A stretch of DNA of 37,741 nt from Candidatus Liptonbacteria bacterium (GTDB lineage: Bacteria; Patescibacteriota; Minisyncoccia; UBA6257; Colwellbacteraceae). Positions 4,381-37,741 of the stretch are shown here, piece by piece. Location: NCBI GenBank assembly GCA_019923695.1, contig JAHXGO010000002.1, positions 1 through 37,741 of the forward strand. The letters are read 5' to 3'. The notes beneath the pieces are model-generated. The model was not told where the DNA came from, did not search any database, and was given only the letters and a program-made list of their open reading frames with translations. The position numbers and the translations under genes are program-made. Position 1 is the first letter of the stretch. Every line of letters starts with the position of its first letter.

Positions 4381-4564
4381 TTATATGTAAAAATCTCGAG
4401 TATTATTTACACTTTTAATTTTATATTCAAGGACAGGTTGTCTTGAAGAACATCTTACAGATGCGCTGGGCTTGGTGTCGCCGCTGGAGCAAAAATATTC
4501 TGGTTCTGAAAGACAATCTGTCCGAAAATGTAAACAACGCTATGAAATTTTACACGTTATATAA
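4381..4564. repeat. Hairpin-forming dispersed element, copy 1 (MITE-like or structured ncRNA)
   Basis: Near-identical to 32359-32533; nested inverted repeats with TGTAA...TTACA ends. Confidence 0.85.
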
Positions 4565-4705
4565 ACAAGCAAAACCTTTAATACCATAACTAATGCTTAT
4601 TATTTTCATACATATTTAAACTCCTACAGAGTCCAATATGTATCTGAACTTATGCGCCCCTTATATCAAACGGCGCGCTACTCACTATAGCGAACCGTAA
4701 ATTCG

Positions 4706-5014
4706 CTATTCAGTTTTAATAATCTTAACTTCAGTAAAAAGTTGACGGTGTCCTTTCTTTTTTCTATAACGAGTTTTTGATTGATAGCGAAAAACTATTT
4801 TTTTATCTCCTTTGCCTTGGCATAAAACTTCCGCTTCCACTTTTCCGTTTTTAAGATACGGCTCGCCTATTTCAACATTTGCGTTATTGGCCTTAAGTAA
4901 AACTTTCTCAAAAAAAACGCTGGCGCCTTTTTCGCCTTTAATTTTTTCTATTTTTATTATATCGCCGGCTGAAACCAAATATTGTTTTCCGCCACTTTCA
5001 ATAACTACTAACAT
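4706..5014 (-). CDS. rplU: 50S ribosomal protein bL21
   Basis: VIESGGKQYLV...KKKGHRQLFT. Confidence 0.97.
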   Translation of the reverse strand: MLVVIESGGKQYLVSAGDIIKIEKIKGEKGASVFFEKVLLKANNANVEIGEPYLKNGKVEAEVLCQGKGDKKIVFRYQSKTRYRKKKGHRQLFTEVKIIKTE

Positions 5015-6925: not shown

Positions 6926-7024
6926 TTAATATAGCGAATAATAAGCCGCTCAATATGTTGAGCTCGAGACTCGCTATAACAAACTGTAAATATATTATAT
7001 CGAACCTACGGTTCGCTATAATAT
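6926..7024. repeat. Array of 12-bp palindromic cores at 24/21-bp spacing
   Basis: Cores at 6926, 6950, 6971, 6992, 7013 (e.g. ttaatatagcga, tcaatatgttga, tcgctataacaa). Confidence 0.75.
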
Positions 7025-10655: not shown

Positions 10656-10813
10656 TTATCCACAGAAATAACCAGTTCTCCACATAGTTATCCACAATTC
10701 CCCACTTTTATTAGAATCCTATTCTATTCCTTGTCTTAAGTCAAAGTTTAAACAAAACCCTAAAAAAATGAGTATTTTAAAGGATTTTTAAACAATTTAT
10801 AAAATTATCCACA
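10656..10813 (-). promoter_or_regulatory. GTGG (MraZ-box-like) repeats overlapping DnaA-box consensus sites upstream of mraZ
   Basis: CCAC at 10660, 10680, 10692, 10702; exact TTATCCACA at 10656, 10688, 10805. Confidence 0.7.
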
Positions 10814-11013: not shown

Positions 11014-11122
11014 CAAAAAATATAAAAATAAATCTCATTAAAAACGGAATAATTTAAACATAGCGAACTTTAGACTTAATGTAGTTCTCCATAAAGAATC
11101 GGAGATCTAATATATTAAAAAA

Positions 11123-13595: not shown

Positions 13596-13900
13596 AATAA
13601 AATGAAGCTTTGATATTGAATATGAATCTTATTTAAAAGATTTTGATATAACCTCTAAAAAGACGCATAAAATATAGTAAATTAACTCAATCGTCAGATT
13701 AAAAAAATTTTTATGGCATTTTATGTCGAACTATCTCCCCCTTAAAATATCAAACAATTGGGCCAAATCGCCATACTATTAAAAAGTATTATACCATTTT
13801 CAGAAAAAATCGCCAGTATGATAAAACAAAGCTTAACATATTGAGTTTATATTTCACTATGACAAACTTTAGTTTAATATAAAATATACAATCCTTAATA

Positions 13901-15322: not shown

Positions 15323-15441
15323 ATAGCATATCAAAGCTTCGCTTCGATATAGTGAATCTCGTTCAATATATCAAACCACCACTATGCTATAGCATAGTGG
15401 TGTACCGCTCGATATATCGAACCTGCGGTTCAAAAATTTAA
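15323..15441. repeat. Palindromic-core array between secY and adk
   Basis: Cores at 15323, 15344, 15363, 15384, 15409, 15430; includes the 26-bp perfect palindrome 15377-15402 and perfect tcgatatatcga. Confidence 0.8.
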
Positions 15442-19226: not shown

Positions 19227-19826
19227 TTATTTTTTAAATGGTACTCCTATTTCTTTATAAAAATCAATTGCTTTATTACGATTCCCAGTATTCAAAGCAA
19301 CCGTCACCTGTAAACCAAAACTTGCTTTTGAAATTTCCTGATTTATTTCCGGAAAAACTACCTGCTCTTTAAAGCCAATATTCAGGCCTCCATTTTTATC
19401 AACGCTTTTCAAATCAATCCCTTTAAAATCTCGAACTCGAGGTAAGACCGTATTGATTAATCTTTTAAGAAAATCATTCATCCTTTTTCGCCTTAAAGTA
19501 ATTTTAAGCCCAACAACCTCTCCCTCTCTAACTTTAAAACCAGCTATGGATTTTTTCGATTGAGTGTCTGTTGGTATCTGGCCAGTAATCAAACTTAGTT
19601 CTTTTTTAATTTCCGGTAAAATTTTCTCGTCAAACTGGGAGTTTAGTTGACGGGACTTACCTATCCCAACAGAAACAATAATCTTTTCAATTTTAACCCC
19701 TTTTAAAGAGGCCTCTGTCGAAGATAAGTTTTTAATAAGACCAACATCAAGCGACATATCACTCGATATATTTAATGTCTTATCTACTATATCAGTATTC
19801 TTTTTTTTCTTCTCTTTTTTTATCAT
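19227..19826 (-). CDS. rplE: 50S ribosomal protein uL5 with atypical N-terminus
   Basis: KIEKIIVSVGIG, ITGQ, SIAGFKVREG, LPRVRDFKG. Confidence 0.96.
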   Translation of the reverse strand: MIKKEKKKKNTDIVDKTLNISSDMSLDVGLIKNLSSTEASLKGVKIEKIIVSVGIGKSRQLNSQFDEKILPEIKKELSLITGQIPTDTQSKKSIAGFKVREGEVVGLKITLRRKRMNDFLKRLINTVLPRVRDFKGIDLKSVDKNGGLNIGFKEQVVFPEINQEISKASFGLQVTVALNTGNRNKAIDFYKEIGVPFKK

Positions 19827-29832: not shown

Positions 29833-30255
29833 TTATCGAGACTCTTTTTTTGGCGCTTTCGCCCCATATTTACTTCTTTGTTGACGACGATTAGAAACAC
29901 CTTCAGTATCTAAAATACCACGAACAACATGATATCTAACTCCCGGCAAATCTTTAACCCTGCCGCCACGAATTAAAACAACTGAATGTTCTTGAAGATT
30001 GTGTCCTTCTCCGGGAATATAAGCGGTAACCTCCATACCATTAGTTAAACGAAGACGGCAAACTTTTCTTAAAGCAGAGTTTGGTTTTTTTGGAGTAACC
30101 GTAAAAACTTTTAAACATACCCCTCTTTTAAAAGAAGAATAAGACTTAACGGGTTTATTTCTCAAAACATTAAAATATCGTCCAAGAGCTGGAGTTTTTG
30201 TTTTTTTAGTTATTTTCCGTCTACCTCTTTTTACCAATTGATTAATCGTAGGCAT
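29833..30255 (-). CDS. rpsL: 30S ribosomal protein uS12
   Basis: [28 protein letters not shown]. Confidence 0.99.
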
Positions 30256-30262
30256 ATTTATT

Positions 30263-30292
30263 AATATAAAAGAAAAATAATGTTTGTGTCAA
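30263..30292 (-). promoter_or_regulatory. Probable sigma70 promoter of the str operon
   Basis: Minus strand TTGACA (30292-30287)-N18-TATATT (30268-30263), only 7 nt from the rpsL ATG. Confidence 0.55.
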
Positions 30293-30342
30293 TCCTGAAA
30301 AGTCTAATAGGCTTTTACTTTATCAAAAACTTCTTTAAGAAA

Positions 30343-30963
30343 TCAATAAAACAACGACCCAGTGATTATTCTGAAAATAATATTAGCTAAAGGCCCTAAG
30401 ATAAACATTGCGGCTAAAAACGCAAATAAAATTCCAAAAATTCCCAATCTTTCTGAAATCTGCCTAAAAAATTTAGGAAACAAATCTTCAAATATTTTTG
30501 AGCCATCAAGCGGAGGAAGGGGCAATAAATTAAATAAAGCCAAAAAAATATTTATATAAATAACAAATCCCCAAAAATCCCAAAACCCAGCTGGCGCATA
30601 AATACTTGGTTCTAAAAATCTTAAAATTAATCCAAAAAAAACCGCAATTATCAAATTAGTTAAAGGCCCGGCAGCCGCCACTTTTAAAGAGCCGTATCTT
30701 TGATCTTTTAAAGCATAAGGATTATAAGGCACCGGCTTAGCCCAACCAATAAAAACTCCAGAATAAAAAAGCAAAAAAAGAGGGACAATTACCGTTCCTA
30801 ATGGGTCTAAATGCGCTAAAGGATTAAGAGTTAAACGGCCTTCTCTTTTAGCGGTGTCATCTCCTAAGGCATAAGCTGCCCAAGCATGAGCATATTCATG
30901 AAAAATAGCTGACGCAACAATTACCGCATATATTAATAATTTAATCACATTAGGATCGTTCAT
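30343..30963 (-). CDS. Site-2 protease (M50) family membrane metalloprotease
   Basis: FHEYAH, AAAGP, FNLLPLPPLDG. Confidence 0.95.
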   Translation of the reverse strand: MNDPNVIKLLIYAVIVASAIFHEYAHAWAAYALGDDTAKREGRLTLNPLAHLDPLGTVIVPLFLLFYSGVFIGWAKPVPYNPYALKDQRYGSLKVAAAGPLTNLIIAVFFGLILRFLEPSIYAPAGFWDFWGFVIYINIFLALFNLLPLPPLDGSKIFEDLFPKFFRQISERLGIFGILFAFLAAMFILGPLANIIFRIITGSLFY

Positions 30964-31160
30964 TAAAATATTATATCAGAGTTTTGTTTTGTCGTAAAAT
31001 AAAGTTTTTATAGATTAGATGACACATTACTTAATATATTGAATTTAAAGCTCTCCATAGTGAACTATTTAATTCAATATAATCACAACTTTTGATGATT
31101 CAAAAAATCTTTATTATTTAGCCAAGCGTTAGTTAAAATGAAAATAATAAAACTTATCAA

Positions 31161-31862
31161 CTAAATTCTAAGTTCTCTTAAAATTAGAATAGGAGTCTGA
31201 CAATTAGATTGAGTGGCTGGATTATCTTTTAAAATTTCCAGCATTAATTTTTCCTTACCTATTAAATCCCGACTTTTTCCTAAAATGTTCCCCCCTAAAT
31301 CATTGACATCAGCCACCAGAAAAAAAAATCCATATTTTTCTTTGAAGTTTTGACAAAGATTGTCGCAATTTTTTAAACCGAGAATACCCATCTCACCATA
31401 TTGGGGAAATATTTTGTCATAAAAACCATCAATTTGAGAAATCTGATGGCCAGCCACCCAATAAAAAACACCATAAATTTTAAAAACTTTACAGACCCCA
31501 GCCAAAATTGAAGCCAATAAAATTCTTGGCAAACCAGCCAAATTAATGGCTAACTGCATTTTTAAAGGATTGCCAACCGAAAAACCGGCTGTTGTCTTTT
31601 TAACAAACCCTGAAAGAAAAGAAGCCCAAAAACCTATTTTTAAATCTTTTTTATAAACAACTTTTCCTTCTAAGATTGAAATAATTTTTTGACCCAAAAC
31701 CACAATATCCCCTTTTTCTAAATAGGCCAAAACATAATTTTCTAAAATTTCTGCCAAAGAATCTTTTTCGCTAATAAAATGTGTTTTTATTGGATAGCGA
31801 GCCCACCTTTGGCCCGAAACTTCAATTATTAGTTTTTTACCAGGATTAGGTTGAAACTCCAT
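31161..31862 (-). CDS. F420:gamma-glutamyl ligase-like (CofE-fold) protein
   Basis: PIKTHFI...D, KIISILEG, IDG, ADVNDLGG, DNPATQ..QTP resemble the F420_ligase family; the true substrate is unknown. Confidence 0.7.
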   Translation of the reverse strand: MEFQPNPGKKLIIEVSGQRWARYPIKTHFISEKDSLAEILENYVLAYLEKGDIVVLGQKIISILEGKVVYKKDLKIGFWASFLSGFVKKTTAGFSVGNPLKMQLAINLAGLPRILLASILAGVCKVFKIYGVFYWVAGHQISQIDGFYDKIFPQYGEMGILGLKNCDNLCQNFKEKYGFFFLVADVNDLGGNILGKSRDLIGKEKLMLEILKDNPATQSNCQTPILILRELRI

Positions 31863-32358
31863 TAATTTTATTTTAATCTTTTTAAGCTAAAATTAAAAAT
31901 CTATACATAAGTCCATAATATTCTGGAAAACCCAAAATTTTTTATTAAATATTATATCAAACTTTGATTGTTTAAAAAAAAGCGTGTATAAGGCTAACCA
32001 AACTTATGTCTCTAAAACCATTTAAATTATTAATCTTACAACGATATTATAAAATGGTTTATTGAATCTTCCTTACGAAGTTCAATTTTACAAGAAATAA
32101 AAAATAATGTAAAATTCAAAAATCAAAAATTTCTTTCGTTAGTTTTCAATTTTCAATTTTCAATAAATTTTACAATTTTATAATTTCCAAACTTACGGTT
32201 ATTCTTATAAAGTTAAACTTCAATAGACTTCTCCAAAAAATCACTAATTTGTTAAGAAATAAAAATGTTTAGAAATTGGAAATTCGAATTATCAAGATAT
32301 ATCTTATTGTAAAACTCTATAAAACTAAAGTTCTAAAGAATACAATATATTTATAACA

Positions 32359-32533
32359 TTATCTGTAAGAATCTCGAGTGTTATTTACACTTTTAATTTT
32401 ATATTCAAGGACAGGTTGTCTTGAAGAACATCTTACAGATGCGTTTTTGCCGCTGGAGCAAAAATATTCTGGTTCTGAAAGACAATCTGTCCGAAAATGT
32501 AAACAACATTATGAAATTTTACAGATTATGTAA
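32359..32533. repeat. Hairpin-forming dispersed element, copy 2
   Basis: Near-identical to 4381-4564 except a 9-nt shorter central segment and a few substitutions. Confidence 0.85.
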
Positions 32534-32538
32534 TCAAT

Positions 32539-32574
32539 AAAAAATCCCTCCTTTTTTAATACGGGAGGGATTTT
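32539..32574 (-). terminator. Intrinsic terminator
   Basis: aaaatccctcc...ggagggatttt stem with U-tract on the minus strand. Confidence 0.7.
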
Positions 32575-32595
32575 GGTTAAGCAATAAAAAGAATT

Positions 32596-32634
32596 TTATT
32601 TCTTTTTTTTCTTAGCCACTTTCTTTTTTGCCAT
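32596..32634 (-). CDS. Candidate 12-aa Lys-rich micro-ORF MAKKKVAKKKKK
   Basis: ATG GCA AAA AAG AAA GTG GCT AAG AAA AAA AAG AAA TAA, followed about 20 nt later by a terminator. Confidence 0.45.
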   Translation of the reverse strand: MAKKKVAKKKKK

Positions 32635-32964
32635 AAAAAGTTTTTTATATATAGTGAGGCTAATAAAAGTTGCCGACCATTCAATTCCATTAGCTCTTGT
32701 TTAATTTTAGAACAAATAACTTTTAAAAAAAATGTGGATAACTTCTATTGATCTTAAAACTTTAATTTATCAATTAATAAAGTAAAAATTTTTGTTAAAA
32801 TAATGATGTCCTGCCTTTTTTCTTCTATACTAACTTTGTTTTAGATAAAAAACGAAGGCTCAATAACAACAAAATAAATTTTTTAGAAAAGATAAAATTT
32901 TAATTTTTATAACTAAAGCTCCTTAATTTTTAATTAAGATTTTCGGAAGTTTTTCACTGAAGTT

Positions 32965-33915
32965 TTAAGACAAAATTTGGATTTCTTCTTCCAGTTTAAT
33001 GTCAAACTGTTTTAAAACCTCTGATTTAACAAGGTTGATCAAATAAATGACATCATTAGAAGAAGCGTTATCAATATTAACAATAAAATTTGAATGTTTG
33101 TCGGAAATCATCGCGCCACCTTGACAGACTCCCTTAAGCCCAGCCTTATGTATAAGATAAGCGGCAGGAATAACTGGGAAAGGATCAGTTTTAATTACTT
33201 CGGCGAATAATTTTCGTTGATCCAAAGGAACTTTTTCAATCGCAACATTTTTAAAAACGCTTCCGGCGTTTGGATATTCCAAGGGTTGTTTTTCTAAACG
33301 ATAAGAAAAATTTTTTTCGATTTCTTTTTTCATAAGCTCTTTATCAGCCGAAGTAAAGGATAAAGCCGCCTTTAAAATAATTTCATTATCGTTAGTTTTA
33401 AAAATACTTGAACGATAGTTAAACTCGCAATCTTTATTTTTTCTTATAACAAAATTATCAGGATTTTTTATTTCAAGACTTAAAACCTCATAAACCGATC
33501 CTTTTATTTCTTTTCCGAAGGCGCCAGCATTCCCTCTTATAGCCCCGCCTAATGTTCCGGGCAAACCAGCTGCCCACTCTAAACCGGACAAGCTTCTTTC
33601 CTGCGAATAATTAACCAAGTTATTCATTAAAACGCCAGCGCCTGCTTCAATTAAATAATCGTCAATTAAATTTATAAAATCAAAATTTATTTTCAAAACC
33701 AAACCATTAAATCCCTCATCGCTAAATAAAACATTTGTCCCGCCGCCTAAAATAAAAATCTTTAAGTCTTTGTTTTCAGAAAAAAGTTTTTTAAATGTTT
33801 TAAAAACTTCTTTTATATCCTTAATATCAGAAACCTCGAAAAAAAAACGCGCCGGACCACCAATGCGATAATGAGAATAATCTTTTAATAAGATATTTGT
33901 TTTAAAATTAATCAT
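32965..33915 (-). CDS. murB: UDP-N-acetylenolpyruvoylglucosamine reductase
   Basis: RIGGPA, LGGGTNVL, GLPGTLGGAIRGNAGA, AGSVFKN, HSNFIVN. Confidence 0.97.
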   Translation of the reverse strand: MINFKTNILLKDYSHYRIGGPARFFFEVSDIKDIKEVFKTFKKLFSENKDLKIFILGGGTNVLFSDEGFNGLVLKINFDFINLIDDYLIEAGAGVLMNNLVNYSQERSLSGLEWAAGLPGTLGGAIRGNAGAFGKEIKGSVYEVLSLEIKNPDNFVIRKNKDCEFNYRSSIFKTNDNEIILKAALSFTSADKELMKKEIEKNFSYRLEKQPLEYPNAGSVFKNVAIEKVPLDQRKLFAEVIKTDPFPVIPAAYLIHKAGLKGVCQGGAMISDKHSNFIVNIDNASSNDVIYLINLVKSEVLKQFDIKLEEEIQILS

Positions 33916-33954
33916 TAAGGTTGACGAAAATTCAACTTAGAAATAAATAATGCT

Positions 33955-34104
33955 TTATTTTTTGGTTTTAATATCATTATTCCTTAAATTAAATTTGTAT
34001 ATTTTAAATACTTTATTCCGAAGCCTATAAATAAAATTATTAAAAACAAAAAAAACAAAATAGAAGAAAATTATTACTAAAATCGCGATTAATATATTAA
34101 ACAT
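33955..34104 (-). CDS. Possible 49-aa small membrane protein
   Basis: MFNILIAILVIIFFYFVFFVFNNFIYRLRNKVFKIYKFNLRNNDIKTKK; could arise by chance in AT-rich DNA. Confidence 0.3.
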   Translation of the reverse strand: MFNILIAILVIIFFYFVFFVFNNFIYRLRNKVFKIYKFNLRNNDIKTKK

Positions 34105-34275
34105 AATTCTATTTTTTAGCAAAACGAAACTTCAATATAATGCTAAAATCTAATTTTACAAGAAAACTATATCAAATAACTGTCGATGATGAAATACCCC
34201 CTGCTTAAAAAGAATAAGAAAAAAACTCAACCCCCTTGTCCTATTTAAAAATAAATTTTTAACAGAATCAAAAAA

Positions 34276-35076
34276 TTAATGATGGTTATTACTATTACGG
34301 CCCAGTCTTTTTAATAATTCGCCGGCTGCTCTTAATTCAGCTTCTTGCTTTGATTCCCCTAATCCCTCGGCTTTTATCTCATTATCAAAATAAACTCCAA
34401 CTTTAAAAATCTTTTCATGATCAGACCCCATTTCGTCCAAAACTTTATAAGTCGGAGTAATTTTATATTCGCTTTGAATAATTTCCTGAAGCAAGCTTTT
34501 AGCGTCTTTATAAAGACCTTTTTCTTCTATCTCCGGAAGGTATAAAATAAGAAAGCTATCAACAAAATATTGAGCCTTTTCATATCCCTGGTCAAGATAA
34601 ATCGCGCCAATTAACGCTTCAAAAGCATTTGCCAATATTGTTTCAAACGAACGATTATTCATTTGAACCTCTCCCTTAGAAAGTAAAATATAATCTTTTA
34701 AAGAAAGACTTTCCGAAGCCTTAAAAAGCATTTTTGAATTCACTAAAGACGCCCTTAAAAGAGTAAGTTTCCCCTCTTCAAGTTGAGGATATTTTTCAAA
34801 AAGATAGCGGGTGACAATAAGCTCTAATACAGCATCGCCCAAAAATTCTAACCGTTCATTATGAGGAAGTTTCCAAAAAAAGTTTTCATTCAAATACGAA
34901 CGATGAGTCAGTGCTTCTTTTAATAAGTCTTTATTATTAAAATTTGTTCCTATTTTTTTTTCTAAAACTGATAAATCCATAAACTGTCCGTTGACCAAAG
35001 GTTGTCCATTAGTCAAAAGTTTTCCATTAGCTAAAGGTTTTGTTTTTTTATTTGATAATTTAATTTTAATTTTCAT
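34276..35076 (-). CDS. rnc: Ribonuclease III
   Basis: [19 protein letters not shown], dsRBD ([14 protein letters not shown]). True start is either 35076 (overlapping the nusB stop) or 34980. Confidence 0.97.
34982..35035. repeat. Three 18-bp units at the rnc 5' end
   Basis: Reverse complement tttagctaatggaaaact, tttgactaatggacaacc, tttggtcaacggacagtt. Confidence 0.88.
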
Positions 35077-35566
35077 TTTTTACTTTTCTGTTTTTTTCAA
35101 TTGTTTTTTTTGGTATTTCGTTTTTATCAGGCTCTCCAATTTCCCGATAAACAGTCCCTAAAACGCCATTGATAAATTTTCCGGCATTAGCGCTGCCATA
35201 AGCCTTTGCCAGTTCAATCGCTTCATCAATAGCAACCCGAGGAGGAACTTCCTGTTTATCAGCAAAAAGAAGCTCGTATAAACCTATGCGTAAAATATTT
35301 CGGTCAATCAAAGAAACTTGTTCAAGGGGCCACCCTGGCGCCGCCTTTTTAATAATTTCATCAAGCTCCCTTTGTTTATTTAAAACGCCATTAATAATCT
35401 TAAAAACAAAGTCTTTGCCATCTAAATCAGGGCCAAACTCTTCAATATTTCGATTAACAATTAAATTGATATCACCAAGATGACCGTTAAAATGTTTTTC
35501 AAACATAAAGTCCCATTCATACAAAGACTGTAAAGCAATAGAACGGCTTAATTGGCGACTAGACAT
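35066..35566 (-). CDS. nusB: Transcription antitermination factor NusB
   Basis: [35 protein letters not shown]. Confidence 0.98.
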
Positions 35567-35586
35567 TTTTAAAGATTATATAAAAC

Positions 35587-35745
35587 TTGATATAGCGAAC
35601 TTCGGACTCAATATATTAAGCGGCATACCGCTTGCTATGGCAAATCATAAATTTAATATATTAAACTGACTATTCACTATAGTAAACCTTGAATTCAATA
35701 TAGCAAAATAAAATTTAACGCATTGAGCTTTATTCAATATATCAA
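35587..35745. repeat. Eight-core palindromic array at about 21-bp period filling the rpmF-nusB spacer
   Basis: Cores at 35587, 35608, 35632, 35653, 35674, 35695, 35715, 35734. Confidence 0.82.
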
Positions 35746-35894
35746 GTTTTGTAAAATCCACAATTTAAACAAACGCAATGAGGCTTAAGAGGGCCTTTAC
35801 ATTTAAGACAAGTAGAGAGTTTCTGATTTTTTTTTCTTAAATTCGCTCTCCTTCGTCCTACTTTCGATCTTGTATGATGTTTGACTGGCGGCAT
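35742..35894 (-). CDS. rpmF: 50S ribosomal protein bL32, zinc-binding (not in ORF track)
   Basis: MPPVKHHTRSKVGRRRANLRKKNQKLSTCLKCKGPLKPHCVCLNCGFYKT*. Confidence 0.95.
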   Translation of the reverse strand: MPPVKHHTRSKVGRRRANLRKKNQKLSTCLKCKGPLKPHCVCLNCGFYKT

Positions 35895-36007
35895 ATTTTA
35901 AAAATTAAATTTGTAAGAATAATAACTATTTTTTCAAAAATAGTCAACTTCTTATTTTATATAACCACGCTTTATTTTAAACTCCAGAAAAGCTTTAAAC
36001 AATATTA

Positions 36008-36035
36008 TTGACTTTCAACCGTTTTTTAGTATACT
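36008..36035 (+). promoter_or_regulatory. sigma70 promoter for rplJ-rplL
   Basis: TTGACT-N16-TATACT. Confidence 0.65.
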
Positions 36036-36043
36036 TAATAAAA

Positions 36044-36176
36044 GTCCGCAGACAGCAGGTCTACCCTGTAAAATTATTTAACAGGGTAACAAATCCTACC
36101 GAGGACAGCAAAATGCTTTTTTGTTTGCGGATTTATATTTAGGGCTGTTTTACGGTCATAAGATAAATCCGTTTTT
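36044..36176 (+). ncRNA. L10 leader (autoregulatory RNA) with downstream attenuator-like hairpin
   Basis: gtccgcagacagcaggt...ttaa...cctaccgaggac resembles the L10-leader core; hairpin cggatttat/ataaatccg plus T-run before rplJ. Confidence 0.75.
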
Positions 36177-36190
36177 TATTTTTAAAAAAT

Positions 36191-36670
36191 ATGTTAACTA
36201 AAAAACAAAAAAATAATCTTATTCAAGAAGGGATTGAGGAATTAAAAAAAGGCAAATCTTTAATCTTTATTGATTTTTCCGGGTTAAAAGGAAACGATTT
36301 AGCCAATCTTCGAAATAATTTAAAAGAAATCGAAAGTACAATGAAAGTTATAAAAAAAAGACTTTTAAGAATTATTTTTGAAAGAAAAAGAATTGATTTT
36401 AACCCCGAAATTTTTGAATCCCAGTTAGGCACGATTTTCTCTTCAGCTGAAATTTATTCAGTCGCCGCTGTTGCGGGGAAATTAGAAAATTTAAAAATTT
36501 TAGGAGGATTTGATTTAGAAAAGAAAGAGTTTATCAAAGCTGATTTGGTTATTAAATTAAGTAAGCTTCCTTCAAAAAAAGTTTTACTTGGTCAATTAGT
36601 GGGAACTATTGTTTCCCCTCTTCGCGCTTTTCTTTATGTTTTGACAGAAAGGTCGAAAAAGATTGCTTAA
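36191..36670 (+). CDS. rplJ: 50S ribosomal protein uL10
   Basis: MLTKKQK, IDFSGL...LR, KVIKKRL, LSKLPSKKVL. Confidence 0.94.
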   Translation: MLTKKQKNNLIQEGIEELKKGKSLIFIDFSGLKGNDLANLRNNLKEIESTMKVIKKRLLRIIFERKRIDFNPEIFESQLGTIFSSAEIYSVAAVAGKLENLKILGGFDLEKKEFIKADLVIKLSKLPSKKVLLGQLVGTIVSPLRAFLYVLTERSKKIA

Positions 36671-36702
36671 ATTAAATAAAATTATTTAAACTAAAATTAT
36701 TT

Positions 36703-37065
36703 ATGGATAAATTACAGGATATTATTTCAAAAGTAGAACAACTCAATGTGGCTGAATTAGCCGAACTAGTTAAAATAATGGAAGAAAAATTCGGGGTTTC
36801 GGCGGCTATGCCGATGGCAGTCGCGGGCGGAGCCTCCGGAAGCGTTGAAGAAAAAACATCATTCAGCGTTTTACTTAAATCAACTGGCGAACAGAAAATT
36901 AATGTTATCAAGATTGTTAGGGAGGTCACTGCATTAGGATTAAAAGAAGCAAAAGATTTGGTTGATGCTGCGCCGAAAGTGGTTAAAGAAGAACTAAAAA
37001 AAGAAGAAGCTGAAGAGTTAAAGAAAAAATTTGAGGAAGTCGGAGCAGTTGCAGAAATTCAATAA
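36703..37065 (+). CDS. rplL: 50S ribosomal protein bL12
   Basis: [29 protein letters not shown]. Confidence 0.98.
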
Positions 37066-37080
37066 AATCTTGCATTTCAC

Positions 37081-37138
37081 AAGCGGTTAGCAATTTCTAA
37101 TTTTTTATTTTAAAATTAGACATTGTTAATCGCTTTTT
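37081..37138 (+). terminator. Long hairpin plus U-tract after rplL
   Basis: aagcggttagcaat...attgttaatcgcttttt. Confidence 0.65.
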
Positions 37139-37212
37139 GATTTTTTAAAAACGGTTTATTACAATAACGCAAAGTCTTAATATATCAAGCAGCACCCAGC
37201 TCGATATAATAT

Positions 37213-37287
37213 GGGCAATTAGCTCAGTGGTAGAGCGCTTCGTTCACATCGAAGAGGCTGTTGGTTCGATCCCAACATTGCCCACCA
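37213..37287 (+). tRNA. tRNA-Val(CAC), CCA encoded
   Basis: GGGCAATTAGCTCAGTGGTAGAGCGCTTCGTT-CAC-ATCGAAGAGGCTGTTGGTTCGATCCCAACATTGCCCACCA. Confidence 0.97.
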
Positions 37288-37569
37288 AAACCAGGCGTTC
37301 CGATTTTTTGGGAATCAATCAGTAGAAAATATATATTGCCGTTCATTATATTTTGTTCTAATAAATCCTCGCCACTTGACCTGTATAAATGCGCTTCACA
37401 ATTGACCAAAACGAATTTCATTTTTATACGATTTTAATTTTATATCAAATTTGACTTGCTCAACAAAAAAATTGCGATAATAAAATAATATTTTACATAA
37501 TATTCATATTGAAAACTTAAATAATCACTCTAATACGACAAACCAAAAAATCTTGATTATCCTCAAGTC

Positions 37570-37741
37570 TAACTTTATCGAAAACCAACCTCGATAATTA
37601 CTCCAAAACCAATATATTGACTTACGAAGTCGATATATTGATTATAGCGAGATAACACACAAATTATTGACTTCGTAAGTTAATAGATTATTAAATTTCA
37701 ATAAATATAGCCTTGATAGACAACAAGCTTCGATATAATCT
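37570..37741. repeat. Palindromic-core array, running to the window edge
   Basis: Core pairs at 37570/37591 and 37609/37630 (ccaatatattga-cttacgaag-tcgatatattga), plus further half-sites to 37741. Confidence 0.7.

Follow-up and report, generated by a model that had tools for sequence, protein, structure and literature searches.

What kind of element fills the gap between rpmF and nusB in a groundwater bacterium belonging to the candidate phyla radiation, a group whose genomes are thought to be streamlined and almost free of repeats, is the question raised by positions 35587..35745 of the window, i.e. the 37,741-nt stretch of Candidatus Liptonbacteria DNA analysed here; the host genome measures 422 kb and is 95.9% complete. 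Eight copies of a 12-bp core succeed each other between rpmF (L32; 35742..35894, minus strand), whose TGA stop lies inside the first of them (TTGA...), and nusB (35066..35566, minus strand), with rnc next (34276-35076); when folded, the array is one long nested palindrome. A TATAAT box, of the type expected for a leaderless -10, occupies 35575..35580 (minus strand), 6 nt past the last core and 8 nt before the ATG of nusB, and in an alignment with the congener L016 it is kept as TATAAG.

Regarding the reality of the array, the spacings given in the initial annotation (21, 24, 21, 21, 21, 20 and 19) were reproduced exactly from cores starting at 35587, 35608, 35632, 35653, 35674, 35695, 35715 and 35734, which score, in this order, 11, 11, 9, 10, 11, 11, 8 and 11 of 12 against TCRMTATAKYGA; six are good and two degenerate. 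The whole window holds 43 cores of at least 10/12, compared with 20.6 ± 4.7 (maximum 37) in 200 order-3 Markov simulations, while the exact IUPAC core pattern has just 4 matches, with none in 100 shuffles. Core pairs 20, 21 or 24 bp apart number 7 against a simulated mean of 0.04 (maximum 1), so that the array observation withstands a test based on the absence of a 21/24-bp peak over controls, and the phased core arrays in the window are confirmed as real. The motif itself is degenerate and not a strict palindrome, since perfect 14-bp palindromes around TATA are scarce (20 genome-wide, 7 of them belonging to another repeat). Among the 31 core positions first listed outside the 15323-15430 range, 19 score at least 10/12, 5 score 9 and 5 score 8, whereas those at 19739 (6/12) and 37591 (7/12) are poor.

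The other sites in the window vary in length and quality. At the 3' end of rplU (4658..4714), a perfect core at 4682 (12/12) is accompanied by two of 8/12, at 4658 and at 4703, the latter overlapping the stop; the array between secY and adk (15344..15441) has its best cores at 15344 (12/12), 15363 (11/12) and 15409 (12/12), a central 20-bp palindrome CACTATGCTATAGCATAGTG, and weaker cores at 15384 and 15430 (both 8/12), with the degenerate last one on the secY stop. Thus terminal cores do overlap the stops of rplU, secY and rpmF, as had been annotated, but those of rplU and secY score just 8/12. A five-core array (6926..7024) has spacers of 12, 9, 9 and 9 nt and ends on TCGCTATAAT, and a three-core array (31031..31085; spacings 21 and 22) ends on TCAATATAAT, which is also the second core of a site where two cores are 43 nt apart (34089..34143). 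Weak pairs are present at 11055..11087 (10/12 and 8/12) and at 13833..13865 (10/12 and 9/12), and a single good core (11/12, 19763..19774) lies within the called rplE ORF, towards its 5' side, with poor neighbours at 19739 and 19784 (8/12). Finally, two cores with a 12-nt spacer occupy 37177..37212 (plus strand), the second of which, TCGATATAAT, ends 2 nt before tRNA-Val (37213-37287), and the array at 37570..37650, with the module TTGACTTACGAAGTCRA, contains a 55-nt block in common with C20 at 89% identity.

At the genome level, the expected spacing peaks are present at 21 bp (n = 17) and 24 bp (n = 13), together with one at 20 bp (n = 11), while spacings of 19, 22 and 23 bp occur twice each, and harmonics appear at 40-45, 66 and 87. 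Cores of at least 10/12 total 367, of which 152 lie in the 53,455 nt outside ORFs (12.7% of the genome) and 215 in the 368,682 nt inside, a density 4.9 times higher outside, on a split that rests on a crude in-house ORF caller; intergenic DNA has 147 cores against 46 ± 7 simulated. Some 53 array loci of 2-8 cores account for 145 cores, and the modular repeat covers about 3 kb, or some 5-6% of intergenic DNA; a pristine array stands on contig C21 at 1048-1185. Its placement mainly at gene 3' ends, as first proposed, did not hold up: core density per kb is 2.9 in tandem gaps, 3.0 in convergent ones and 2.1 in divergent ones, and in 18 tandem gaps the median array distance is 63 nt to the stop and 47.5 nt to the start, with neither side preferred and a stop codon touched in five. 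Composite blocks of 44-79 nt are common to different loci at 88-100% identity. Around the 44 contig ends, cores no more than 300 nt away number 17 where 9.8 would be expected, a weak enrichment only; the arrays probably cause breaks in the assembly. A phage origin was considered and discarded: viral contigs had 0 matches to two module patterns.

The repeating unit of the arrays is a module of 20-24 bp, made of TATA, a short hairpin of 16-20 nt and a second TATA; the hairpin has the form KYGA, then a spacer of 8, 9 or 12 nt, then TCRM. Cores begin with TC or TT and finish with GA or AA, and two types of 12-bp palindromic junction can be told apart, ATATAT (TYGATATATCRA) and CTATAG (TCRCTATAGYGA), both of the form TCR-N-TATA-N-YGA. 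Adjacent modules have opposite polarity, so the two junctions alternate: among 55 distinct modules, the succession is 1 to 2 in 20 cases, 2 to 1 in 16, 1 to 1 in 7 and 2 to 2 in none (Fisher p = 9e-7). Where the initial annotation saw two classes of spacer, there are three, of 8 nt (16 modules), 9 nt (27) and 12 nt (14), conserved rather than variable and fixed in polarity relative to both junction types; all but the 12-nt class give AT-rich hairpins. The spacers are self-complementary, with 117 Watson-Crick pairs out of 201 against 57 ± 6 after shuffling, and covariation is confined to the 21-bp class (111/175 against 87.7 ± 6.1), with none in the 20- and 24-bp classes. The repeat-spacer logic suggested at first finds no support, because these spacers are three conserved self-complementary classes that recur at many loci.

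Comparison with relatives reveals a repeat that is restricted in lineage and changes by whole modules. L016 has a homologous array at the same rpmF-nusB junction, and the two differ by one indel of 24 nt and one of 22 nt, each a whole module bounded by TATA, which bears out the suggestion that arrays change by modules within the core; as read from the alignment by eye, identity is ∼78% in the cores, ∼40% in the spacers and 85-90% in the flanks. Since module number varies, the arrays would be usable as strain markers. In more distant relatives the rpmF-nusB junction measures 18-140 nt and is free of arrays. This genome has 29 module matches; three distant genomes, whose SecY is only 48-49% identical, have 4-5 apiece, and 30 closer relatives 0-1 apiece. 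Near-identical modules in distant genomes that are absent from 30 closer ones are not explained by slippage alone.

The two junction types, which had been missed at first, are here read as putative -35-like and -10-like boxes placed before leaderless ATGs and tRNAs. The ATATAT junction reads TTGATA, and the next junction, 18-19 nt on, is often TATAAT; at array ends, TATAAT is followed by an ATG 7-10 nt later, as at C1 32110, C20 979 and C20 19002, or by a tRNA further on. Genome-wide, 35 of 781 TATAAT hexamers have an ORF-opening ATG at 5-11 nt, compared with 8/832, 8/781, 11/1180 and 13/1286 for four control hexamers. This genome contains 11 instances of the combination TYGATATA-N16/17-TATAAT, and 30 relatives have 0-1 apiece; the targets of the 11 include six ORF starts (at least 90 aa, within 103 nt), one tRNA and one four-copy element of 70 nt, while two of the remaining sites lie inside called ORFs and one is antisense. 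Three other genomes of the candidate phyla radiation have the same cassette upstream of gene starts, composed of the CTATAG junction, a GC hairpin, TCGATATAT, 8-9 nt and CTATAAT, TCGATA and the -10 being 17-19 nt apart.

This reading has its bounds. With TATAAT at the right distance, the terminal cores, and only these, would qualify as sigma-70 -10 boxes; the symmetric forms TATAGC, TATAGT and TATATC precede a start in 1/224, 1/237 and 0/327 cases, so that interior cores are unlikely to act as -10 boxes. In modules of 20 and 21 bp, 18-19 nt separate the -35-like from the -10-like element; in those of 24 bp the separation reaches 22 nt, too long for a sigma-70 promoter. An ATATAT-type core sits at the -35 position in 8 among 66 of the 76 leaderless-promoter rows, and about 4 of 38 tRNAs have an array upstream; hence, the motif is not the general promoter of this organism. 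Of the stringent core pairs, 24 face the next ORF, 17 face the opposite way, 5 lie in ORFs and 3 at contig ends, and the fact that convergent gaps hold arrays as densely as tandem ones counts against a promoter role. A sigma-70 and terminator scan of 30000-37741 returned 41 promoter-like sites against 34.4 ± 4.9 and 6 terminator-like ones against 4.5 ± 2.1, values that are uninformative in such AT-rich DNA. The sigma factor of the organism has 431 aa. The CTATAG junction presumably resembles the promoters of phage-type single-subunit RNA polymerases; the PF00940 profile for this polymerase had no match, in a search where the control matched in no genome either.

The explanation preferred here, to which roughly an even chance is given, is that of a lineage-amplified mosaic repeat derived from a promoter and stacked by gain and loss of whole modules, in the manner of REP/BIME and Correia elements. 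The modules would be promoter parts, with the ATATAT junction offering a -35-like TTGATA or TCGATA and the next junction, 18-19 nt downstream in 20- and 21-bp modules, supplying the -10; the gene-proximal -10 of each array, reading TATAAT, would drive leaderless mRNAs as well as some tRNAs and small repeated elements. Copies of the cassette would have reached about 50 intergenic places and then been stacked in tandem by module gain and loss at TATA, for which slippage across the hairpin between TATA direct repeats is the simplest route, while interior copies, symmetric and not employed as -10 boxes, would be decaying.

Mycobacterial interspersed repetitive units are also tandem and intergenic (40-100 bp), vary in copy number between strains and overlap stop and start codons; they differ from the modules in being direct repeats with small ORFs and not alternating palindromes. 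Among the closest known counterparts are the REP/BIME mosaics of enterobacteria and pseudomonads, described as high-copy extragenic palindromes, regularly spaced, in alternating orientation and with conserved types of linker (PMC2817692). The module arrays share all these traits, being high-copy, short and mostly extragenic palindromes with regular spacing, alternating polarity and conserved linkers, and on this point the initial annotation was right; no description of such a system was found in the literature searched. A REP is further described as a GC-rich stem-loop of 20-40 bp with a tetranucleotide tag, GTAG or CGTC, at one end (PMC3733652), and the modules have a tetranucleotide by the hairpin as well; this is TATA, it stands on both sides, and the modules are half the size, AT-rich except in the 12-nt class, and with junctions that can be read as -35 and -10 boxes. 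As for promoter reuse, or putative mobile promoters, highly similar promoters before unrelated genes of one genome, common to distant taxa, have been reported (PMC3575422), and the promoter-like cassette likewise recurs at many loci and in distant taxa; the promoters described in that account are single, without tandem alternating half-promoter palindromes and hairpin spacers. Overall, the BIME-like mosaic and the change by whole modules survive from the first interpretation, while the repeat-spacer logic and the gene 3'-end placement do not.

A possible but unlikely alternative is that the modules are selfish REP- or MITE-like units, non-autonomous hairpins of 16-20 nt that insert into the TATA of -10 boxes and duplicate it, mobilised by a single-strand (HUH) transposase or by an enzyme of another, unknown kind, so that their likeness to promoters would stem from the site they target and not from function. 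TATA flanks each module on both sides, close relatives differ by indels of precisely one module, hybrid junctions are frequent (50 and 35 among the 367 cores), identical composite blocks stand at separate loci, and the patchy spread over genomes also agrees with mobility; yet slippage between TATA repeats accounts for the indels equally well and without an enzyme, and empty sites at new loci were not observed. Correia elements offer a precedent, as their termini read TATAG[CT]GG, close to the module half-junction TATAG[CT]GA, and they are described as creating sigma-70 promoters at their ends (with a -10 inside the initial 6 bases, or with a -35 and part of a -10), as lying 5' of many Neisseria genes, and as giving hairpin RNAs cleavable by RNase III (PMC2649163); they are 69-157 bp long, single and with 26-bp inverted repeats, whereas the modules are chained and of 20-24 bp, outside the range of tens to hundreds of base pairs and single insertions typical of MITEs and Correia elements.

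No mobilising enzyme was identified. No cas, RAYT or integrase gene is present among the 53 ORFs checked in the window, as already annotated, and the genome encodes one RAYT-like Y1 (Y1_Tnp) transposase outside it (232 aa; Pfam 29 bits; NCBIfam REP_Tyr_transpos 26 bits, with a cut-off of 80), a point in favour of this alternative. The genome search yielded no RAYT flanked by the core motif, which is a difference from REP/BIME: beside the sole RAYT-like gene stands another hairpin, 21 nt long and with 4 copies genome-wide, and not TATA cores. Nor do Y1 genes track the modules across genomes: those of G031 and G032 carry other hairpins, G033 has modules without a Y1 match, and a Y1 gene is present in 7 of the 30 relatives, which have 0-1 module matches apiece. 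REPINs, inverted doublets which fold as long hairpins and are amplified in a lineage-specific manner (PMC3337134, PMC3116915), are similar in that the modules too are inverted, form long hairpins and are lineage-amplified; they differ in that no RAYT is flanked by modules. A search of the genome for TnpB found no match. The modules are not RAYT-linked, and a unit of 16-20 nt is far smaller than known mobile elements; indeed, we know of no mobile element so short. The boldest version, i.e. that these hairpins are the smallest known proliferating DNA, colonising the -10 TATA, rebuilding the -10, stacking like BIMEs and crossing between distant lineages of the candidate phyla radiation without a transposase of known kind, is held to be unlikely.

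Phased operator arrays, on which a dimeric regulator or nucleoid protein would bind the 12-bp palindrome TCGNTATANCGA cooperatively, with two-turn spacing, over promoters, are quite unlikely. The shared form of both junctions, the clustering of centre-to-centre distances at 20-21 bp, and the far better conservation of cores than of spacers between the window and L016 are consistent with such a protein, as is the lack of strand asymmetry, expected of a signal at the DNA level: sense-strand mismatches are 33 G-T against 28 A-C, and the sense-minus-antisense fold energy over 14 arrays is -0.3 kcal/mol. Conversely, the conservation and self-complementarity of the spacers are not required by a reader of cores only, the 24-bp spacing sets sites ∼100 degrees out of phase, arrays also occupy convergent gaps, the 30 closer relatives are without sites, and no candidate protein was identified.

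A role at the RNA level is very unlikely, with the transcribed arrays acting as long hairpins that terminate or insulate transcription from one gene to the next, or as elements for RNase III processing or stability. The transcribed strand of the focal array folds at -44 kcal/mol (z -4.5 against shuffles; -8.65 in the congener and a median of -2.9 over 23 arrays), Rho has no match in this 95.9% complete genome, the second gene downstream of the focal array is rnc, stop codons mark the start of three arrays, and the array region is present in contigs of four metatranscriptome runs. On the other side, the transcribed strand has neither a preference for G-U over A-C nor a bias in stability, true covariation is limited to the 21-bp class, the hairpins have no U-tracts, the terminator scan of 30000-37741 found no terminator-like site within arrays, and the arrays are not bound to stop codons, which 5 of 18 touch.

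Lastly, dispersed TIGR-like guide arrays for a highly divergent Tas protein are scarcely credible, and the modules are not a TIGR guide array: although two alternating 12-nt repeats with segments of 8-12 nt resemble the published TIGR arrays (two alternating repeats of 8-12 nt, 9-12 nt between them), and stem-loop versions are known in members of the candidate phyla radiation, the published repeats start with TG and end with CCA (PMC12045711), unlike those found here, which are spread over ∼53 loci of 2-8 cores and not placed beside one effector gene, have conserved and palindromic segments, and come with no Nop-domain match (PF01798, E up to 10) in the 95.9% complete genome, a profile that a very divergent Tas could escape.

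In conclusion, the meaning of these arrays depends on which of the readings applies. To our knowledge, promoters and gene regulation in the candidate phyla radiation are essentially uncharted; should the modules work as promoter parts, they would give a first sequence-level handle on the transcription signals of this group, as well as a natural example of how promoters propagate and stack. If the modules are mobile, the size limit of proliferating DNA would be pushed lower, and if hairpins do colonise -10 boxes, they would amount to a promoter part that propagates itself and shapes how an ultra-small genome expresses its leaderless genes.

The arrays of the 12-bp palindromic core are a real and statistically solid repeat system. 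In the focal array (35587-35745), flanked by two minus-strand genes, rpmF (35742-35894) and nusB (35066-35566; rnc follows it), the eight cores proposed in the initial annotation were all found in place, at spacings of 21, 24, 21, 21, 21, 20 and 19 bp; against TCRMTATAKYGA, six score 10-11 out of 12 and two are degenerate (9 and 8). Of its 31 positions elsewhere in the window, 19 reach 10/12, and two (19739 and 37591) are poor. A strict core pattern matched the window 4 times and none of 100 shuffles; in 200 order-3 Markov simulations of the window, cores at 10/12 or better numbered 20.6 ± 4.7 (maximum 37) against 43 observed, and pairs 20, 21 or 24 bp apart averaged 0.04 (maximum 1) against 7. 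The whole genome (422,137 bases in 22 contigs, ∼33% G+C, rated 95.9% complete with 0.06% contamination) has 53 loci with at least two cores, spanning 2,991 bases. Core pairs there lie at 20 (11), 21 (17) and 24 bp (13), with just 2 each at 19, 22 and 23 bp and harmonics at 40-45, 66 and 87; the peaks at 21 and 24 bp expected in the initial annotation do appear. By crude ORF calls, cores are 4.9 times denser outside ORFs (152 in 53,455 nt) than inside (215 in 368,682 nt), and the 147 intergenic cores amount to about three times the number in simulated intergenic DNA (46 ± 7).

The organism is a candidate-phyla-radiation bacterium, and the window, which makes up positions 1-37,741 of contig C12, carries the str/S10/spc ribosomal-protein cluster with fusA, tufA, secY, adk and map, the cell-division genes mraZ-rsmH-ftsI, murB, rnc, nusB, rpmF, rplJ-rplL, and two tRNAs. 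At 41-2620 it encodes a RecG helicase whose two helicase domains are separated by an inserted PD-(D/E)XK nuclease domain (residues 434-537). At 10674-10696, some 60 nt upstream of mraZ, AGTTATCCACAT occurs twice in tandem and includes what we take to be a DnaA-box-like nonamer.

As for the DNA between cores, the two spacer classes first suggested gave way to three, which are conserved rather than variable: 8 nt (ACTAAAGT-like), 9 nt (ACTCGAAGT, AACTTCGTT and CTTACGAAG-like) and 12 nt (GCGGCGTACCGC-like). With its flanking half-cores, every spacer folds into a hairpin, so that the natural unit, or module, is TATA, hairpin, TATA; spacers are strongly self-complementary, with 117 of the 201 pairs open to them complementary (57 ± 6 in shuffled spacers). 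The base adjoining each TATA defines two alternating junction types, ATATAT (type 1) and CTATAG (type 2), whose order in 55 distinct modules is 1 to 2 in 20, 2 to 1 in 16, 1 to 1 in 7 and 2 to 2 in none (Fisher p = 9e-7). Since the polarity of every spacer class is also fixed relative to the junction types, successive modules are inverted copies and the whole array is a nested palindrome. Under a slightly looser core definition, the periods of 68 adjacent modules are 21 (27), 20 (16), 24 (14), 19 (6) and other (5).

A link to promoters emerges from the sequences next to the cores. Of 781 TATAAT occurrences, 35 have an ATG that opens an ORF 5-11 nt further on, with a peak at 6-9 nt, against 8/832, 8/781, 11/1180 and 13/1286 for four control hexamers, which marks TATAAT as a putative working -10 of leaderless genes in this genome. 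Such starts appear common: at least 35 ORFs have TATAAT or TAAAAT 6-9 nt upstream of their ATG, for the most part with no recognisable -35. Cores whose right half is TATAAT mostly have an ATATAT-type core (TTGATA or TCGATA) 8-9 nt upstream. This genome has 11 copies of the exact form TYGATATA-N16/17-TATAAT, and each of 30 relatives has one or none. Six of the 11 aim at the start of an ORF of at least 90 aa within 103 nt, three of these with an ATG 8-16 nt past the box; the others precede a tRNA (one) or a four-copy 70-nt element (one), lie in called ORFs (two) or are antisense (one). At nusB, TATAAT comes straight after the final core of the focal array, 8 nt ahead of the ATG, and a two-core unit ending in TATAAT lies upstream of tRNA-Val.

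The reach of this link is limited. Only 8 among the 66 listed of 76 leaderless promoters have an ATATAT-type core at the -35 position, about 4 of 38 tRNAs have an upstream array, and stringent core pairs aim towards the next ORF in 24 cases and away from it in 17; the interior-core hexamers TATAGC, TATAGT and TATATC practically never precede a start (1/224, 1/237 and 0/327), and in 24-bp modules the gap between boxes is 22 nt. Together these points suggest that the motif is a special copied promoter cassette and not the general promoter of the organism, most interior modules probably not being active -10 boxes.

Three other genomes, belonging to Candidatus Paceibacteria and Candidatus Nealsonbacteria, carry the cassette as a CTATAG junction, a GC hairpin (the 12-nt-spacer module), TCGATATAT, 8-9 nt and CTATAAT or a near variant; TCGATA lies 17-19 nt from the -10-like hexamer, and genes start downstream. 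They were recovered with a 28-nt pattern for this module, matched at 8 places in three species among the 185,579 searched (∼0.3 chance matches estimated), and have 4-5 modules and 2-3 exact cores each, against 20 exact cores here. The module pattern itself occurs 29 times in this genome. Among 18 genomes from other genera of its family it is absent, and of 12 genomes of its order two have a single match each. Searches of viral contigs for module patterns gave no match. By SecY, the module-bearing genomes (48-49% identity) are more distant than module-less relatives (56-58%), which points to a patchy distribution with a single strong expansion in this genus.

Regarding turnover, the rpmF-nusB junction also has an array on a metagenome contig from a congener (L016, whose NusB is 84% identical). 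This array is homologous to that of the window, with flanks and first 50 nt matching well. The change by whole modules that had been proposed is borne out by two indels of one module each, both TATA-bounded: 24 nt that only L016 has and 22 nt that only the window has. A junction in the window with a CTATAG-type left half and an ATATAT-type right half would be what deletion of a whole module leaves, and hybrid junctions are frequent genome-wide (50 and 35 of 367 cores). Different loci also share composite blocks, 44-79 nt long and 88-100% identical; contigs C7 and C16, for instance, have a block of 75 nt in common that is 100% identical. Copies have therefore spread or been homogenised recently. 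That all this reflects a purely selfish hairpin element targeting TATA is somewhat unlikely; TATA-bounded indels and patchy occurrence agree with it.

Concerning the factors that might act on the modules, one Y1 (RAYT-like) transposase gene is present (C7 8577-9275; 1246-1944, minus strand, on metagenome contig L001; 232 aa), scoring 29 bits with Pfam and 26 bits with NCBIfam REP_Tyr_transpos, whose cut-off is 80. It is flanked not by TATA cores but by its own 21-nt hairpin, TTACGATGTCGGGAATCGTAA, which has four genome copies, including an inverted one inside the gene and a fourth on C5; gene and hairpin would make up a small unit of the REPtron kind, with no relation to the TATA cores. Of the 30 relatives, 7 have a Y1 gene, and these have 0-1 module matches apiece; of the three further genomes with modules, two have a Y1 gene, again with different hairpins. 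Searches of this genome gave no match for TnpB or Rho or, with E values as high as 10 allowed, for a Nop-domain protein; it has two sigma factors, of 431 aa and 185 aa, the latter in our reading of ECF type.

A phased array of protein-binding sites, the other proposal of the initial annotation, is unlikely. The clustering of spacings at 20-21 bp agrees with it, as does the better conservation of cores. Between the window and L016, cores are ∼78% and spacers only ∼40% identical, as counted on the alignment, with the adjoining promoter and coding DNA at 85-90%.

A role of the arrays at the RNA level is quite unlikely. Folding gives -44 kcal/mol (z -4.5) for the focal array, whose first core pairs with its last, and -73 kcal/mol (z -8.65) for that of L016; real compensatory variation is limited to the 21-bp class (111/175 against 87.7 ± 6.1), palindromy in the 20- and 24-bp classes being conserved sequence. 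The transcribed strand has no advantage in mismatch types, with 33 G-T and 28 A-C in the sense orientation, or in fold energy, where subtracting the antisense from the sense value leaves -0.3 kcal/mol over 14 arrays, so the symmetry looks like a property of the DNA. A TIGR-like role is very unlikely: the resemblance to TIGR arrays, which are known from candidate-phyla-radiation bacteria, is one of form, two short repeats alternating with segments of 9-12 nt between them, and every other defining feature tested failed to hold here.

Other repeats accompany the arrays. One family of ∼190 nt, with internal complementarity and often adjoining a core cassette, has window copies at 4381-4574 and 32359-32543 (88-96% identical) and others at C12 41701-41926, C2 7633-7922, C1 31935-32060, C1 18954-19031 and C17 19121-19205; no Rfam model matches it at the gathering score, and it may be a structured small RNA or a mobile module of another kind. 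The 70-nt element, nearly identical at C1 47715(-), C2 8257(-), C7 7157(+) and C16 39180(-), runs from immediately behind a core-type TATAAT into the following core. It would either code for a hydrophobic peptide of 21 aa (MKFLYTSFAIASSVYKKFILL) or fold, around GCGATCGC, into a long hairpin; possible identities are a small RNA and a toxin-like small gene. Another TATA-centred module family, the 20-bp perfect palindrome CACTATGCTATAGCATAGTG, has 9 loci (window 7077, 10995 and 15383, and six on C1, C15, C16, C18 and C20), often with a ∼30-nt conserved stretch upstream that holds a second hairpin, GCTATGAC..GTCATAGC.

Among known systems, REP/BIME mosaics are the closest in architecture and dynamics: both are regularly spaced in alternating orientation and have linker classes and a tetranucleotide tag, and the initial annotation was right to call the mosaics BIME-like. 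Their size and composition, TATA tags on both sides and the absence of a RAYT that matches them place the arrays outside that family's definition. The nearest functional analogue is the Correia element of Neisseria, whose ends begin TATAG[CT]GG, which creates -10 and -35 boxes and forms RNase III-sensitive hairpins (PMC2649163); it is single and 69-157 bp long, whereas the modules here are chained. The idea of copied promoters has been published as 'promoter reuse' (PMC3575422). Literature searches found nothing relevant on extragenic palindromic repeats in candidate-phyla-radiation groups and no paper on leaderless promoters in Patescibacteria; the system is apparently undescribed.

More distant relatives have 18-140 nt at the rpmF-nusB junction and no array. 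Two metagenome relatives (L018 and L019, NusB 55% identical) have their own TTCGAA/TCGATA-rich palindromic repeats in this spacer, ∼140 nt upstream of nusB, with ACTTGGTATAATTG four times in L019; other lineages may thus have their own copied promoter-like motifs. In conclusion, the reading we favour, with middling confidence, is that the modules would be a promoter-derived mosaic repeat, REP/BIME- and Correia-like, expanded in one genus of ultra-small bacteria and turning over as whole modules at their TATA brackets.
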